Source: a virus
DNA length: 64,000 nucleotides
Direction: 5' to 3' (one strand)
Virus genome (UHGV): UHGV-0134996
The position numbers are program-made. Each line of letters starts with the position of its first letter. Positions within the stretch are counted from its first letter, which is position 1. Of this stretch, positions 50,401 to 56,400 are shown piece after piece.

Positions 50401-53400
50401 TGCTGGGCCGTCATTTCTGTCATCGGTGGCAGGACGCATAGATAGCAAAGGCTCAGCCCCGTTTGTTACGTGCTTACGCAACCAGGCTCGTGTTTTATCC
50501 CTGGCTATCTCACAGCGCCCGGTTACAAACCAGACCGTGTAAACGTTAAATAACTGGCGCACCATATCAATAACTGGAGTGATGGGAGCATCAGTGTCAC
50601 AGGCAAGGTTAAACTCGTTCCAGTGCTCTGTTAATGCACCTTTGCCAGGTGGTGGAAGCAAATGCAGCCTGTCTTCCGTTGCCTCTGATATCGTCCCATC
50701 AATATCGACTATGACGATATACGGACGTTCCTGGTGTGCGTGTTTATTGAAAATACTCAAATGCCCTCCTCATTGGACGAAAAAAATGCTGGTGGGACGC
50801 ACTCCACCAGCATTAAAAGTGACACTGTAACTATCAGCGAACGTAAATAGTGCCGCCGTTCTCTTTTTCCCATGCATCGCTACGTGCATAGCAAACATCG
50901 AGAAGTCTTCTTGCCGCTGTTTCCTCTAAACCCAATTCGACAACCAACTGCTCATGACGGCGGGTAACCACATCAAACAGGGTATGCAGCCCTTTATTGG
51001 CCAGTTCATCAATGAATTCCGGTTCGAACGGTAGCTCTGCATCTGCCAACATAACCTCTTGCGCCCACTCGACACGGCGGACCAGTTCCGGGCGGCGGCT
51101 TTCCATCTCTTTACAGATCATTTCATGGAAGAACTCTACCCAACCTTCCGGCTGGAACTCGCGGAAAATGGCCAACGGCTGGAAGTTTGGCATCAACCAT
51201 TCGTTGATACGTATATCAATGGCATAGCCCATGTCGCAGCAGAACTGATAAGCAAAGTCCAGCTTAGAAACGATATAAGGACGCTCGTTATTGAACTCTT
51301 TAGGCGATGAGATCCCATAAGCCAGGAGGCGCGGGAAGAATGAGATTTGCCCTAACGTCGGATGGAGTTTGCTTGCAGGGAAACGGCGCTCAGTAATGCC
51401 ATACATTTCCTTCTTGAGCGTCGCAAATTTGGCGTTTTCATTAACCAGCTCGGTAACCTCTGCTTTTTTATTAGCAAATGCCACGCGCGCCTCGCTTGCA
51501 TCTTTAATAGCCTTTTTGAGCTGTTGGTTAAGGTCGACAATCTGCTTACGCAGTTCCTGTCGCTCGCTTTTGGCTTTGTTATAGCGTTTCTCAAGGTTAA
51601 AAGGATCAAGTTTCATGATCTCTTTATATTGAGATTTTAGAGTTGAAATCTGTGAGTTCCGCAGCACAACCATCGCGGTCATTTCATTGAGTTTTGTTTC
51701 CAGCTCAATGCTTATACGTTCGGCATTATCAGCACGCTGGTTGGCGTCATGCGTCGCATCTTCGATCGCGTCCTGTTGCTGGCGTTTCAAATGTTCAATT
51801 TCCAGCTGAAGCTCTTCAATTTCTTTACCCTTCAGACCGAGATCCAACTGCATATTTTCAGCTGCATCTACCAGGGAGTTATGGCTATCAGCTTCTGCGT
51901 TATAAACATCAATAAGCTGTGCGTGAAGCATCTCCGCTGACTGAACCGCATTATCAAAAAAACGTGCTGTGAGGTCATCACAACTAACGCGGCGTTGCGC
52001 GGCCCGGATGTTCTGGATAATGGCCGGGATACCGGCATTCAGGACATCAGGGATAGATACATTTTCGATTGATTGGTTTTGTGCTGAAGTGCTCATTTCA
52101 AAGTTCCGTATTAGCTTGTGCTTCGGTCATTTTTCCTAAGTATGAAGGAGGAAGGACTACGCAATTTGTATCCAGTCCCTCACCTATGGCAGCCTGTAAA
52201 ATTCTGGCTAAGGTGAGTCTCTTGTTGCGATACCTGGTGATGACATGCCTGATACCGCCGGTCGGCGTAACAAAGGCGATCAGCCAGTAGTGATATTTCC
52301 GTCGGAATGGCCACATAGTGCACCTTGTAGATTGCTCTAATAAAAAACGTGATGAGTGTACATCACGTTTTAAAAATATGGAATTATTAGAGCAATATTA
52401 TTCTGATTCTCGCTCAAAAAATGAGCTGATAAGGGGAAGCCAATCCTCTGACACTTCGCGAGGTCGCGGTTTGCCGTGGAAAAAGATTATTCGGCAGTCT
52501 TTTGGTAATGCCCCATTCCCCCTGGAGTAACGCGCGCTCGCATATTTTGAACCTGGTTCCACAACATCGGCCTTGTAACTTACAAACCATCCTGGATACA
52601 GATCCTGAAATGCTGGTGTATCATCGCCCATAACCTTTCGTAAGAACCCCTGATCACCCCAGCATTCAGTAGTAACACAACGAGCAATCCAACCTTCCGG
52701 ATCTTGCCAGAATGCACTCCAGATATGCGCTTTTACACTATTTGGTATCCACAGGGCACCGCTGCCACGATATTGTGGATGGTAAAAATCCCTAAGCATG
52801 GTGAAGCTGGTTGGTGGATGCTCTAGGATTGGGCGTATATCACCGGCAATAACCGTGTCCAAATCCAGATAGAACAGATCATCGGTTATATCCGGTCGGA
52901 ACAACTCTATTTTCGCCCACCAGCCACGGCACTTTTGCCACTGGTTGATCAATGGGACAACTTTGACGCCAGGTACATGTAAACGCTTCAGGTCTGTCAG
53001 GCAAATAATTTCATAGCCTTTTGGCAGTTGATTAACCAGCCACTGCACATCGGAAGCGTTATAGTCACCACCAGAGCGAAAAACTAAAGCAATCTTCATG
53101 CTGCACCATCACCTTTCACTTTCATCAATGTCAGGTTTCCGCAAAATACGGCACCAGTGTCGATATACTGCTGATTCCAGAATGTCTTCGGGCTTTTCAC
53201 CGGAGTGTGACCAAAGATAAAACGATCTGCGCCCGAAATTTCGCCACCAATATCATCCATCGAATCACTGATACGCTCGCGCGCCCAGACAACGTTGAAA
53301 AGCGGCACCTCCTTACCGAATTGGTATTCATTATCCGGATAGTCGGCATGGGCTATAACGATAGTTTCTTGCCCGGTGTTCAACTCAATGATATAGGGCA

Positions 53401-56400
53401 GACGCTTTACCAGCTCCACCAGCGCCCAGGCTAATATTTCCTGATCAGTGTCCAGCATGAAGAACCATTGTCCGCCATTCATTAGCCAGTTATTCACGTT
53501 GCCATCTGGACTTAACGCATCAATCATCAGCCGCTCATGGTTCCCCATCACTGCCCTGAACCAGGGCATCTGCAATAGTTCCAGACATTCGACATTTTCA
53601 GTACCGCGATCGATAAGGTCGCCGACCGATATCAGTAAATCCTGCGCCGGGTCAAAATCCACACGATGGAGTTCGGACATCAGTCTGGTGTAGCAACCAT
53701 GCAGATCACCAACAACCCAGACATTCCTGTATTTGGTACCGTCGATACGGTGATAAATTGTGGGTGCCATCATGTATTCTTCAGCCATTCTTTAAGAGTC
53801 ATCTGCGGAATACCTCCCATTTTCCCGCATGAAACAACGTCAATCTGTTCACGCGCAGACTGGAATAACAAAGGCAGGTGACTTAGATTTTTTGGCGTGC
53901 CGCCGGAGTGAACGCGTGGTTCTTGTGTAGCGTCAACGCCCACCAGGGCGACATGTTTGAATCCGATATGGAAAGCCAGGTTCAGAGCGCCATATGCACT
54001 ATTGCCGCTGGCAATTTCATTCTCATCTTCGCAAAGTCCGAAATGTGCGGACCAGCGCCACGCCCACCACTCGGGAGAATTCATATTTTTTGGCTCCATG
54101 CCACGTTCAGCCACACGACGGAAGCACAGAACGCCGTCTCTGACTTCACGTTCTTTAACATCGGGTAGTGCCATGCAATAACAAACACCACGGCGACGGC
54201 GGCCACGACCAACGCGCCGCATATTGTCTGGCGATGGATCAAGTGTGAAAAAATAAGAAGCGCGGTTCAGCCAGTCGATGGCCCCATTGACCGCTATAAT
54301 CGGCACTCCGCGCGGCGCAACAAAGTTTGCGGCGCTTGGGCCACTGCCGACGATAATAACGCGATCACTGCCTCTAAATTTATTCTTGGGAAACATTGAA
54401 TTGCACTGCTCCTACTTGCATTCAAAATATGTAAATCTGCGTGTTTTTTGCGGGTATCCAGGAACTGCTGTTGCCATTTTGAAATAGACACCTGCGTTGG
54501 ATTCCGTAGGGCTTGAGGGTGCGCGCCATGCCAATGAAGGCCGTTTTGCAGAGAACAGTCATAGCCGACTAATACAACTACTTCAGCCCCTGATTCAGCA
54601 GCCAGACTGATAGCCTGCGCGCCGCTATTTACCCCTTCCGCCGGTCCACAATATCGCCTGTACTCCAACGAAAATGATTTCGCCGCCGCCAGGTTGGCTG
54701 TCACTTTGCGGAATTTCCCTCCCGGTATGGTGGATCCGTATTGCTTCCACCATGACAAATCACCGGCGTATAAGGCATAAATGTCATCGAACATCTGCCA
54801 GGAATTGTTAACCGCGATGATTGAACAGCCAGTTTTTTCTATAGCAGCACAGTCCTCACGAGTGAGTGACGGACCGCTACCGACACAAAAAACAGTCCTA
54901 GTCGCCCTGGGTGGTATGTTCATTCTCAGCTGCAAATTCAGCCTCCAGGCGAGCATTCATTTCAGCGATTACCGGGTCCACTACAGCATCTGCTTCCTGT
55001 TCATTACGCGGCATGATCGATGCCAGCGATTCATAATTAGCCTTGGATGACACGATTATTCTCCCGATGTTAATGTGCGCTGTATCAAAGAACACATATG
55101 CACTAATTAATTTATTATTTCACGTAGCGAACAACCACTTGTCACCGTTCAATACATGCTCAATAGCCTCACCCTTTTTAAGGCTCATGTATTCCAGGAT
55201 GGCGGTTATCGCTTGTTCTGCACCATACGCAAGAACGACGTAGTAACCTTCCTCTCTAAGCCTGCGCATCCAGGCGATCTGCTCTTTCGTCGGGGCTTTA
55301 CCATTTGGTTCTTTAAGCTCAATTCGCATGCCGTGATAAATACCGCATGCTTTATCGAGACTCATGTCCGGATAACCTTTTTTCTGCCCTTCAGCCTTCA
55401 TTTTCCCGGCGGTTGCTTTTGAACGTTTCCCTCCGTTAGGCGTTGCATGCAACAGCTCATAGATGTCAGGGTGCTTGCGTTCGAAGTAATCAAAAATGAA
55501 AACCTGCTCGAAGTGCTCGCAATTTCCGTCGCGCAGGTCGGGGTTCTTTGCCAGTGCTGCAAGTGCCTTCGCATGTGGAGAAACTTCTTTTACCGGCGCA
55601 AGCGATAAGAATGGATCCTTTTTGGTTTTTGGCCTGGGCCGCCCCTTATTTCGACGCTCACTAAAAGCCTGAAACTCTTCCTCAGTAAAGCGCAACATAA
55701 TCAGTCAAATCCTGCCGGTCGCATGCCATATTTACGCTGTTTTGCGGCCTGCTCTACCCTGTGCCATTGCGCACATTCAGCGTCACAATAAATGCCTGAT
55801 TCAATCGATTCATTGCAGTAACGACACTTCCCTGTAAATACCTGGCTCACGACCTGTGCCTGCTTTCTGATGTTATCGATGGCCATGTCTTTGAGAGCTT
55901 CTAACTGATTCATGCTCAGCTCTGCATCATCAACACGTTCTGCCAATTTTGTTTCCTCGTGAAGAACCTACTTAAGGGCAGAATGATACATTTCACAATC
56001 AAAATTGCACTAATAATTTTCTTTTATTGAGTTAAATATTCAACAAATGACTAGCGGTAGAATCACCATCATCTATTTCTGGCAGGCTGACTATGGCTAC
56101 ATCAATCACTACAACCCAAAGCACCCGGCAATATCCTCTGTCGCGGTATGACGACCGCAACATAGCCGATCCAATACTCAGGGCAGAGCTGCGCAAAGAG
56201 GTGATGCTTATGTGTGAATCGAACGACAAGAATCTGACGATTTATTACGTTCTTCCCGATGAGCAATATCGCCCGGATTTGCTGGCTTACCGTATGTGGG
56301 GCATAGCAGAGCTACGCTGGGTTGTGACGCTCGCCGCCGGGCTTGAGGATGAGTCTCAGGGTATGACTGTTGGCAAAAAATTAAAACTCCCACCTGCCAC

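Follow-up and report, generated by a model that had tools for sequence, protein, structure and literature searches.

The pmgO, pmgP and pmgQ genes of a P1-like phage as a candidate mobile glycan-building cassette

The question raised by this locus is what its four consecutive minus-strand genes do, and whether they do it together. A sequence-only reading of the window (the whole 64,000-nucleotide stretch of the virus genome UHGV-0134996 that was analyzed) had proposed that a DxD-motif protein, a calcineurin-like phosphatase and two MptE/DUF115-like paralogs form a single module for glycosylation or nucleotide modification, rather than for morphogenesis.

Gene order, overlap and regulatory sites

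The window belongs to a P1-like phage, and the quartet corresponds to P1 pmgO, pmgP, ppp and pmgQ, genes that are already annotated and were hitherto uncharacterized. The four predicted open reading frames were confirmed at 52398-54956. Nucleotide identity to P1, P7 and RCS47 was 98.4-99.4%, with identical annotated boundaries, and 19 phage records matched the whole pmgO-pmgQ region within the same range. Plaque formation is unaffected by knock-down or deletion of pmgO, pmgP, ppp and pmgQ (PMC10695390). The features of the locus are as follows.

52331-52347, plus strand: Op86b, C1 operator of the pair flanking PpmgR
52338-52371, minus strand: terminator-like hairpin directly after pmgQ (11-bp stem, 6-nt loop, then a U-run)
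52380-52396, minus strand: Op86a, C1 operator of the pair flanking PpmgR
52398-53099, minus strand: pmgQ, 233 aa, putative divergent GT8-like GT-A glycosyltransferase
53096-53788, minus strand: ppp, 230 aa, lambda-type PPP-family Ser/Thr phosphatase in a variable slot between pmgP and pmgQ
53770-54396, minus strand: pmgP, 208 aa, distant paralog that shares the fold of pmgO
54294-54396, minus strand: out-of-frame pmgO/pmgP overlap, 103 nt (last 34 pmgO codons, first 34 pmgP codons)
54294-54956, minus strand: pmgO, 220 aa, single domain of the DUF115/Maf/sialyltransferase fold
54898-55053, minus strand: pmgN, small gene that opens the operon (annotated with 51 aa in P1)
about 55097-55113, plus strand: Op83/Oppp, single C1 operator upstream of pmgN, coordinates transferred from the P1 annotation
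about 55126-55152, minus strand: PpmgN, predicted promoter, transferred from the P1 annotation

The pmgN frame is open from 55095 and overlaps the start of pmgO by 59 nt; a pmgO start at M12 (54923) is a possible alternative. The cluster had been placed immediately downstream of a pair of C1 operators, but the Op86b/Op86a pair is found immediately beyond the pmgQ stop codon, where the cluster has its 3' end, and according to the P1 annotation it controls pmgR/pmgS and not pmgO-pmgQ. By transfer from the P1 annotation, the operator upstream of the cluster itself is the single Op83/Oppp site, whose sequence in the window, TATGCACTAATTAATTT, has 4 mismatches to the C1 consensus used. The hairpin between Op86b and Op86a (dG -13.4 kcal/mol, z -5.4) is the probable end of the pmgN-pmgQ transcript.

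The 103-bp out-of-frame overlap of the two paralogs was present as described; seen from pmgO, pmgP is read in the -1 (+2) frame. The first half of the overlap covers a conserved part of PmgO, the C-terminal helix, and the N-terminus of PmgP, which is not conserved. In the second half it is the PmgO part, a disordered tail, that lacks conservation, whereas strand 1 and the GSGPS loop of PmgP are conserved. Because the P1 annotation has the same overlap, the 19 phage records match across it, and 31 related loci (near-identical duplicates among them) have an O/P overlap of 4-133 nt, it is no sequencing artefact and resequencing is unneeded. The overlap had been called unusual, which holds for its length but not for the arrangement itself, conserved with variable length in those 31 loci. 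The same observations make it hardly credible that a frameshift error accounts for the overlap, or that programmed -1 frameshifting takes place there to yield a PmgO-PmgP fusion protein. Such a site would suit the -1 frame of pmgP, the canonical A_AAT_TTA heptamer within the overlap in the pmgO frame, and the naturally fused homologue P0051, but the heptamer is gone in close relatives (ATA AAT CTG, ATA AAC CTG) and lacking in distant ones, and by our own estimate one heptamer would arise by chance in 34 codons with a probability of about 0.13. Moreover, pmgP has a conserved ATG of its own at 54396, the sole start that retains the GSGPS loop, with a Shine-Dalgarno sequence (GGAG) at about 54409-54413.

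Families and folds of PmgO, PmgP and PmgQ

The motifs attributed to the two paralogs were found in both proteins: PmgO has VGSGPS, IIAVNN and LVGYDCS, and PmgP has VGSGPS, IIAVNGA and LVGVDAT. The invariant residues of PmgO are N50, D66, W69, W70, S111, G112, G131-Y-D-C-S135, H141, H143, H146, N179 and R182, and disorder was predicted for its 18 N-terminal residues and for the tail past approximately residue 206. The PmgP motifs are GSGPS, AVNGA, TLD, GNSAYGAL, LVGVDA and HLPLLF. The proposed MptE/DUF115 assignment was supported by the fold and by the families as a whole, as 23 of the 24 O-family members (best 3e-8) and 33 of the 34 P-family members (best 8.6e-7) matched PF01973 at E ≤ 0.1; the P1-type proteins themselves, however, fell below its gathering threshold of 34.6 bits (PmgO, 23.6 bits, E 4.9e-5; PmgP, 21.1 bits, E 3e-4). 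By hhalign the profiles of the two families are homologous (98%, E 2e-13), both proteins have the Rossmann-like fold common to Maf and MptE, and their family also matches sialyltransferases of three CAZy families. Fusions of the O-P and O-O types occur in P0051, P0227, P0245, P0275 and P0310. These fusions and the gene overlap suggest that PmgO and PmgP probably act as a pair.

The DxD-motif protein of the earlier reading is PmgQ, a predicted GT8-like glycosyltransferase. In its motif FYLDLDTV, D79-L80-D81 are invariant among 29 homologues, and so are H208, G209, P211 and P213 of the C-terminal H208-G-x-P-x-P element among 29 sequences. The PmgQ profile matched the GT8 Skp1 alpha-galactosyltransferase 6mw5 (E 4.5e-7), 5gvv (0.0036) and glycogenins (about 0.02) in the PDB; hhalign to WaaJ gave E 3.6e-4 at a probability of only 36.8%. 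Both motifs align with those of 6mw5, glycogenin and WaaJ (H-G-KPW), as is characteristic of GT8. PmgQ had no Pfam match at E ≤ 0.1, Glyco_transf_8 included, and it constitutes its own phage family, phrog_1962.

Distribution of the cassette and the place of ppp

O, P and Q occurred together in 25 of 29 diverse IMG/VR loci and in 11 of 18 GTDB loci. Phages of Proteobacteria, Bacteroidota and Gemmatimonadota carry this combination, with hosts that include Brevundimonas, Methylophilaceae, Zhongshania, Sinomicrobium and Longimicrobiales, and in varying gene orders. The companions in the P-Q slot or adjoining the cassette were SAM methyltransferases (11 loci), FkbM methyltransferases (five loci) and extra GT-A enzymes (seven loci), plus proteins that by eye look like GT2 or GT4; a PmgO fusion to a TylF-type O-methyltransferase was also found. 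Phage genes surround pmgO and pmgP, and neither flagellar nor Pse/Leg genes were seen among the neighbors. In at least two HK97-like phages (L098 and L099) a Pfam-confirmed gp6-like head-tail connector gene follows the cassette, and in L098 a Pfam-confirmed Phage_capsid gene lies just upstream; the sizes of the flanking ORFs have the same pattern in six further loci. In aggregate, Pfam counts among cassette neighbors were seven capsid, six portal and six connector genes. The cassette comes after lysis genes in three other loci, and in L003 terminase genes are next; the virulent myovirus IME392 has it amid DNA-metabolism genes, not structural genes. Our best reading is that pmgO, pmgP and pmgQ are a cassette for sugar transfer, shared by many phages of Gram-negative bacteria that are unrelated to one another. 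In this, the glycosylation half of the earlier proposal fits best, and better than morphogenesis, given the sugar methyltransferases, the glycosyltransferases and, in three loci, kdsB found with O, P and Q; nucleotide modification has no specific support.

The calcineurin-like phosphatase was correctly recognized in ppp, which scored 59.3 bits against PF00149 (cut-off 21.5), has the PPP-family motifs GDLHG, GDLIDRG and GNHE, and matched phrog_246 at 5e-113. Its closest NCBIfam models are the PrpA/PrpB protein phosphatases (272.5 and 239.5 bits, below the equivalog cut-offs of 326 and 332). The idea of four genes forming one module did not hold for this gene. When IMG/VR and GTDB loci were compared, ppp was not found in any cassette outside the P1 lineage; elsewhere its slot holds sugar methyltransferases or extra glycosyltransferases. 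Since phage D6 has ppp and lacks O, P and Q, we interpret ppp as an insertion.

Two alternatives bear on what the cassette makes. If all four genes were one pathway, the phosphatase would dephosphorylate the acceptor or a sugar-phosphate intermediate. The position of ppp, exactly in the slot of the tailoring enzymes of other cassettes, its overlaps with both neighbors (4 and 19 nt) and its retention in that slot in diverged P1-like elements (59-71% identity) would agree with such a role, but we find it quite unlikely in view of the restriction to the P1 lineage, the situation in D6, the protein phosphatases PrpA/PrpB as closest models, and the 64% identity to the lambda phosphatase given in the P1 annotation. 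Lambdoid phages have the phosphatase gene in the nin region and are not known to carry glycosyltransferase genes with it, which also counts against such a role. A reading of PmgO and PmgP as pyrophosphokinases of the MptE or thiamin pyrophosphokinase kind is similarly improbable. In it, they would supply an activated small molecule or nucleotide, which PmgQ would transfer in a modification of DNA, RNA or a metabolite. The fold is shared with these enzymes, but the pterin or thiamin context is lacking, the match to sialyltransferases of three CAZy families points elsewhere, and the recurrent companions are sugar-tailoring enzymes, further glycosyltransferases and kdsB, with no base-modifying or folate genes among them. 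Hypermodification is not known for P1 DNA.

Proposed function and comparison with known systems

A true kdsB lies approximately 2-2.5 kb downstream of Q in L123 and L129 (TIGR00466, 241.6 and 179.9 bits; cut-off 155.2), and L118 has a partial copy near the cassette. These are the only three loci with kdsB nearby; all are distant P1-like elements, and homologues of pmgR/pmgS lie between. A true KdsB encoded near the cassette in distant P1-like plasmids points to CMP-Kdo as the most likely donor, and Maf enzymes can use CMP-Kdo in E. coli (PMC11339370). As acceptor, our guess is first a virion structural protein, through Ser/Thr O-glycosylation as by Maf, with the LPS core a close second. The capsid, portal and connector genes beside some of the cassettes are a hint of the former. 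Against it, the P1 virion proteomics paper makes no mention of glycosylation in its main text.

We consider it about an even chance that O, P and Q are a mobile cassette that builds a short, probably Kdo-containing glycan for which ppp is not needed. PmgO and PmgP would be two diverged single-domain enzymes of the Maf/sialyltransferase (DUF115) fold, made by coupled translation of their overlapping genes and probably working as a pair. The sugar that they transfer would most likely be a CMP-activated ulosonic acid; in E. coli K-12 this could only be Kdo, taken from host CMP-Kdo. PmgQ, as a GT8-like retaining hexosyltransferase, would add or prime a hexose. The glycosyltransferase activity of all three is a prediction. 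The cassette would be transcribed during lytic growth and is dispensable for plaque formation in the laboratory, and ppp would be a lambda-type protein phosphatase that landed in a variable tailoring-enzyme slot, with the chemistry of the cassette independent of it.

The P1 receptor is the LPS core glucose. As an alternative, the glycan might belong to the host surface. The cassette would then remodel the host LPS core and not a phage protein, with PmgO and PmgP adding an extra Kdo as WaaZ does and PmgQ adding a hexose like the GT8 enzymes WaaO/WaaJ; alteration or truncation of the outer core would block superinfection, or the loss of progeny on debris. This is possible but doubtful. The glycosyltransferase families are the ones that assemble the LPS/LOS core, the alignment of PmgQ with WaaJ spans the DxD and H-G-KPW motifs, kdsB is nearby in three loci, all 18 genome loci come from diderm, Kdo-making lineages, and a faint precomputed WaaZ_KDO_III match exists on the fused homologue P0051. 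Overexpression of waaZ truncates the outer core (Frirdich et al., 2003, as cited in PMC12856342). However, sequence tests for WaaZ membership failed, the late-gene positions in many prophages and the presence in a virulent phage would leave poor time for replacing surface LPS, and the P1 operon carries a C1 operator and should thus be silent in lysogens. In the virion-directed form of the glycan-cassette reading, a two-subunit "mini-Maf" (PmgO and PmgP) and the GT8-like enzyme would decorate the phage's own virion proteins with a Kdo-containing O-glycan from host CMP-Kdo, in P1 and in many tailed phages of Gram-negative bacteria, some of which would boost the pool through their own KdsB. This specific version is unlikely, though conceivable; if true, it would be without precedent, both as a native system for protein glycosylation with Kdo and as virion glycosylation in a classical coliphage.

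Maf flagellin nonulosonic-acid O-glycosyltransferases (DUF115) are proteins of approximately 600 residues with extra N- and C-terminal domains, found within flagellar glycosylation islands with flagellin and nonulosonic-acid genes. The Maf chain in PDB 5MU5 has 632 residues, whereas PmgO and PmgP (220 and 208 aa) have the size of the bare catalytic core (about 200 residues), form a diverged pair in phages with a GT8-like partner, and show neither the multidomain architecture nor the linkage to flagellin and nonulosonic-acid genes. Their resemblance to GT42 (Cst-I/Cst-II) and GT29 sialyltransferases is one of fold; as E. coli K-12 makes no CMP-sialic acid, the sialyltransferase label is not literally right for P1 in K-12. 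From MptE (the archaeal 6-hydroxymethyl-7,8-dihydropterin pyrophosphokinase, PDB 8SD5) and thiamin pyrophosphokinases the cassette differs in its companions: glycosyltransferases, sugar methyltransferases and kdsB.

WaaZ, the KdoIII transferase of the E. coli K-12/R2 LPS core (PF27901), would use the same donor, CMP-Kdo, and has a local motif resemblance to the PmgO/PmgP family around the helix-strand-GxD element. By the tests used here PmgO and PmgP are not members of this family, as none of the 58 O- and P-family members matched PF27901 at E ≤ 0.1 and hhalign of the two families to E. coli WaaZ gave probabilities of only 7.9% and 14.9%. With the retaining GT8 glycosyltransferases (glycogenin, Skp1 6MW5, WaaJ/WaaO), PmgQ shares the DxD and the C-terminal H-x-G-x-x-(K/R)-P, but it is shorter, has no Pfam Glyco_transf_8 match and stands apart as phrog_1962. 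The gene product of ppp shares the PPP-family metallophosphatase motifs with the lambda protein phosphatase (NinI) and E. coli PrpA/PrpB, at scores below the PrpA/PrpB equivalog cut-offs. Capsid glycosylation by two phage glycosyltransferases has been referred to (e.g., PMC11256854). Like mycobacteriophage virion glycosylation and gtrABC O-antigen conversion, the O/P/Q type is a phage-borne glycosyltransferase cassette that is dispensable for plaques and has its place within late operons or beside them. It differs in its enzyme families, in its diderm hosts and in the use, as the probable donor, of a CMP-ulosonic acid.

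The pmg cluster and its transcript ends

By sequence, the window belongs to a P1-like phage. Its region 52398-54956 matched P1, P7, RCS47, SJ46, and others (19 phage records) over the full length at 98.4-99.4% identity, and the four genes in it are already known from the P1 annotation:

52398-53099, minus strand: pmgQ, 233 aa
53096-53788, minus strand: ppp, 230 aa
53770-54396, minus strand: pmgP, 208 aa
54294-54956, minus strand: pmgO, 220 aa

The GenBank product name for pmgO, pmgP, and pmgQ is "putative morphogenetic function". Their newer RefSeq labels are "alpha-2,3-sialyltransferase", "norphogenetic protein", and "glycosyltransferase", respectively; the misspelling comes from pmgM in the original P1 record and is now the product name of PmgO/PmgP homologues in many bacterial genomes. 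The pmgM gene (55120-55698, minus strand), also annotated "putative morphogenetic function", resembles a nuclease of the VRR-NUC/Holliday junction resolvase type (Pfam VRR_NUC 21.2 bits, just under the gathering score of 23.8; phrog_5702 "Holliday junction resolvase", 1e-26).

Our literature search found no functional studies of pmgO, pmgP, or pmgQ, and the P1 virion paper mentions neither these genes nor glycosylation in its main text. CRISPRi knock-down and single-gene deletions showed that pmgO, pmgP, ppp, and pmgQ are dispensable for plaque formation (PMC10695390). The small gene pmgN (54898-55095, minus strand; it overlaps the pmgO start by 59 nt) was CRISPRi-essential (EOP 1.4e-2) yet could be deleted without loss of viability, and knocking down the four genes downstream of it had no effect (PMC10695390). 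Left of the phosphatase gene pap, the window differs from canonical P1 at 45786-48266 (minus strand), where it carries lambdoid Ead/Ea22-like and DUF4752 genes, a content also found in some P1-like isolates (MH422554 with 75% coverage, P7 with less).

The sequence-only reading had described a possible four-gene modification module immediately downstream of a pair of C1 operators. Its observations were largely right, including the GSGPS, AVN, LVGxD, and DxD motifs, which we read in the translations and family alignments; its interpretation was half right. The operator placement was wrong in transcriptional terms: the pair lies directly 3' of the pmgQ stop codon. The regulatory features, with operator names from the P1 annotation, are:

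52331-52347, plus strand: Op86b, C1 operator match
52380-52396, minus strand: Op86a, C1 operator match
52338-52371, minus strand: strong hairpin with U-run (11-bp stem, dG -13.4 kcal/mol, z -5.4), exactly between Op86a and Op86b
about 55097-55113: Op83/Oppp, the single C1 operator upstream of the cluster, with PpmgN and the small first gene pmgN (P1 annotation)

Op86a and Op86b flank the promoter PpmgR, and the P1 annotation assigns the pair to control of pmgR/pmgS. The hairpin probably ends the cluster transcript and is likely an intrinsic terminator that lies within the promoter/operator region of pmgR. It was missed by a simple terminator scan, and promoter and terminator consensus scans found nothing useful inside the cluster.

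Protein families and the pmgO/pmgP overlap

In profile searches, PmgO and PmgP, like nearly all their relatives, reached PF01973 (MptE-like/DUF115) under its gathering score, and PmgQ was GT8-like by profile, though without a Pfam match. With the PmgQ family profile, the GT8 Skp1 alpha-galactosyltransferase scored E 4.5e-7, and a second GT8 protein and glycogenins were also matched; the family's invariant motifs, DLD and H-G-x-P-x-P, line up with the metal- and nucleotide-binding motifs of GT8 enzymes, and with E. coli WaaJ. The ppp product is, by homology, a PPP-family metallophosphatase (Metallophos 59.3 bits; phrog_246, NinI-like, 5e-113; PrpA/PrpB-like NCBIfam models, 272 and 239 bits).

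Compared by hhalign, the profiles of the O and P families are homologous (98%, E 2e-13, 161 columns) despite a pairwise BLAST match limited to the N-terminal loop, which points to old paralogs. PDB sequence searches with PmgO, PmgP, and their profiles gave nothing significant, and matches came from structure comparison alone; the viral structures matched in BFVD were all either giant-virus sialyltransferases or uncharacterised phage proteins of the MptE-like type. Membership of WaaZ, the LPS KdoIII transferase, was negative in sequence tests (hhalign, and the PF27901 model over family members), and a direct link of the cassette to this enzyme is not supported by sequence. Clustered at 50% identity, the PmgO family counts 467 clusters when the threshold is E <= 1e-30, 3547 when it is E <= 1e-10, and 7084 when it is E <= 1e-3. 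Natural two-domain fusions (P0051, O-P; P0227, P0245, P0275, and P0310, tandem O-type) argue that two such domains would function as a unit.

The 103-nt out-of-frame overlap of pmgO and pmgP (54294-54396) is real. The ATG at 54396, preceded by GGAG, is the only pmgP start that keeps the conserved GSGPS loop. When O and P genes in related loci were placed with family HMMs, the O end fell within P in 31 loci, a number that includes several near-identical duplicates, with overlaps of 4, 7, 11, 13, 23, 40, 43, 49, 64, 67, 70, 94, 100, 103, 109, or 133 nt and P in the -1 frame in 29 of the 31. The length varies because the PmgO tail beyond the last conserved helix, which is unconserved and predicted to be disordered, varies from 0 to 31 residues. 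In P1, the first half of the overlap is constrained by the C-terminal helix of PmgO (the first 10 residues of PmgP have a mean pLDDT of 57) and the second half by the first strand and G-loop of PmgP.

The suspected frameshift error at this place was excluded by the identical boundaries in P1, the 19 phage records at 98.4-99.4%, and the recurrence in 31 related loci. Programmed -1 frameshifting at A_AAT_TTA was rejected, given that the heptamer is unconserved in close and distant relatives. The recurrence and the unconserved heptamer point to an inherited arrangement typical of coupled translation, and to neither an error nor a recoding site. At L100, an Erwinia typographi locus, a PmgP-like gene is split over two frames (355-922; HMM positions 5-135 and 133-164), which marks a pseudogene or else an error in the assembly.

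Distribution of the O-P-Q cassette and its variable slot

Its relatives show that O-P-Q is a cassette, conserved and widely distributed, in which the slot for tailoring enzymes varies. A lambdoid prophage of Citrobacter rodentium carries O, P (94-nt overlap), and Q without a phosphatase, between lysis genes and terminase. Among 18 GTDB loci, 11 had O+P+Q and 15 had P with Q; most that do not show the full cassette are cut by contig ends. The hosts, all diderm, include Pantoea, Pseudescherichia, Zhongshania, Microbulbifer, a Methylophilaceae bacterium, Brevundimonas, Sinomicrobium (Bacteroidota), and a Longimicrobiales bacterium. The first viral-contig scan gave only near-identical P1-like contigs; a scan with a distant first sequence yielded 29 diverse IMG/VR loci, of which 25 had O+P+Q. 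In the virulent coliphage IME392 (116 kb), next to a DNA ligase gene, there are O, P, a protein that by eye resembles GT4, and Q. Gene order varies (O-P-Q, P-Q-O, O-Q-P, or divergent), and the link between the genes is therefore functional and not merely syntenic.

The slot between P and Q, or the position just after Q, held a class-I SAM methyltransferase in 11 loci, an extra small DxD glycosyltransferase in seven, and an FkbM-family methyltransferase in five; proteins that looked like GT2 or GT4 by eye also occurred there, and in one case a PmgO homologue forms a fusion with a TylF-type O-methyltransferase. These companions are typical sugar-tailoring enzymes. The phosphatase occupies the slot only within the P1 lineage (down to 59% identity), and in phage D6 ppp (89.7% nucleotide identity) stands among unrelated genes without O, P, or Q. 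This distribution marks ppp as an insertion that does not belong to the core of the cassette, and the four genes as something other than a single module.

Two loci showed other neighbours. The Serratia plymuthica chromosomal island L002 (CP180221.1, 4513-17785) has PmgP- and PmgQ-like genes beside a phage lysozyme, and of its two PmgO-like copies, one precedes two Big_1 (Ig-like) proteins and a lipoxygenase; the metagenomic protein P0229 fuses a PmgO-like domain to Big_1/Big_13 domains, and such Ig-like proteins might be acceptors. The Hafnia alvei locus L004 (10001-12332) has a PmgO-like gene without a P or Q partner, overlapped by a 306-aa ORF with no Pfam or NCBIfam match; a Methyltransf_23 protein and an HNH-looking ORF follow, just before terminase.

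Possible donor and acceptor of the proposed glycan

In three distant P1-like phage-plasmids with O-P-Q and without ppp, a cytidylyltransferase gene follows the pmgR- and pmgS-like genes. It is a kdsB (CMP-Kdo synthetase) gene, located 3' of the pmgS-like gene:

L123, 11647-12402: kdsB
L129, 11186-11974: kdsB
L118, 11154-11750: kdsB, partial

With 241.6 and 179.9 bits, it exceeded the equivalog cut-off of 155.2 set for kdsB, and its product matched KdsB proteins of solved structure at 1e-65. Between L123 and L129 the two copies share only 40% identity, so the association with the cassette is old. At the corresponding position after pmgS, P1 has the HAD-type phosphatase gene pap; Pap was rejected as a KdsC-like Kdo-8-P phosphatase, having no NCBIfam match. 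E. coli K-12 is not known to make any CMP-activated ulosonic acid other than CMP-Kdo. When Maf enzymes are expressed in E. coli, they use CMP-Kdo to attach Kdo to Ser/Thr (PMC11339370). Taken together, the points that are new in this analysis, namely the O-P-Q cassette with its tailoring slot, the conserved overlap, the independence of ppp, and the kdsB association, lead to the hypothesis that the cassette would transfer Kdo.

That the cassette builds a glycan seems an even bet or slightly better; we are less confident about its donor and target. Of the two activities first suggested, glycosylation is favoured. A role as pyrophosphokinase or in nucleotide modification ranks third because no companion gene points there. 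The LPS core ranks second as acceptor. The LPS outer core is the P1 receptor, the cassette enzymes belong to the families of core assembly, and all known cassette hosts make Kdo; a truncated outer core is reported to result when waaZ is overexpressed (Frirdich et al. 2003, as cited in PMC12856342). A virion protein ranks before it. In structure comparison a protein O-glycosyltransferase was the best match, and at L098 the cassette is flanked by a major capsid gene, confirmed by Pfam, on one side and a gp6-like head-tail connector gene on the other. A Pfam-confirmed connector gene follows the cassette at L099, and flanking ORF sizes show the same pattern at L106, L108, L110, L112, L124, and L145. 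Pfam counts over 122 neighbouring ORFs gave nine head-completion, seven capsid, six portal, and six connector genes; at L003, L006, and L109 the cassette comes after lysis genes.

P1 is among the most-used phages in genetics, and its four genes have so far been labelled "putative morphogenetic function" or automatically. Three of them are part of a widespread cassette with the hallmarks of a glycan-building system, and the glycan question is directly testable because single-gene P1 knock-outs exist. The enzymes may be compact tools for Kdo or sialic-acid glyco-engineering. A product on LPS would be a new kind of receptor masking. A glycan on the virion, the acceptor that we favour, would matter for how immunogenic and stable phages are and for how they interact with receptors, both in phage therapy and where P1 is used for delivery, and glycosylation of phage virions has precedent (e.g., PMC11256854).
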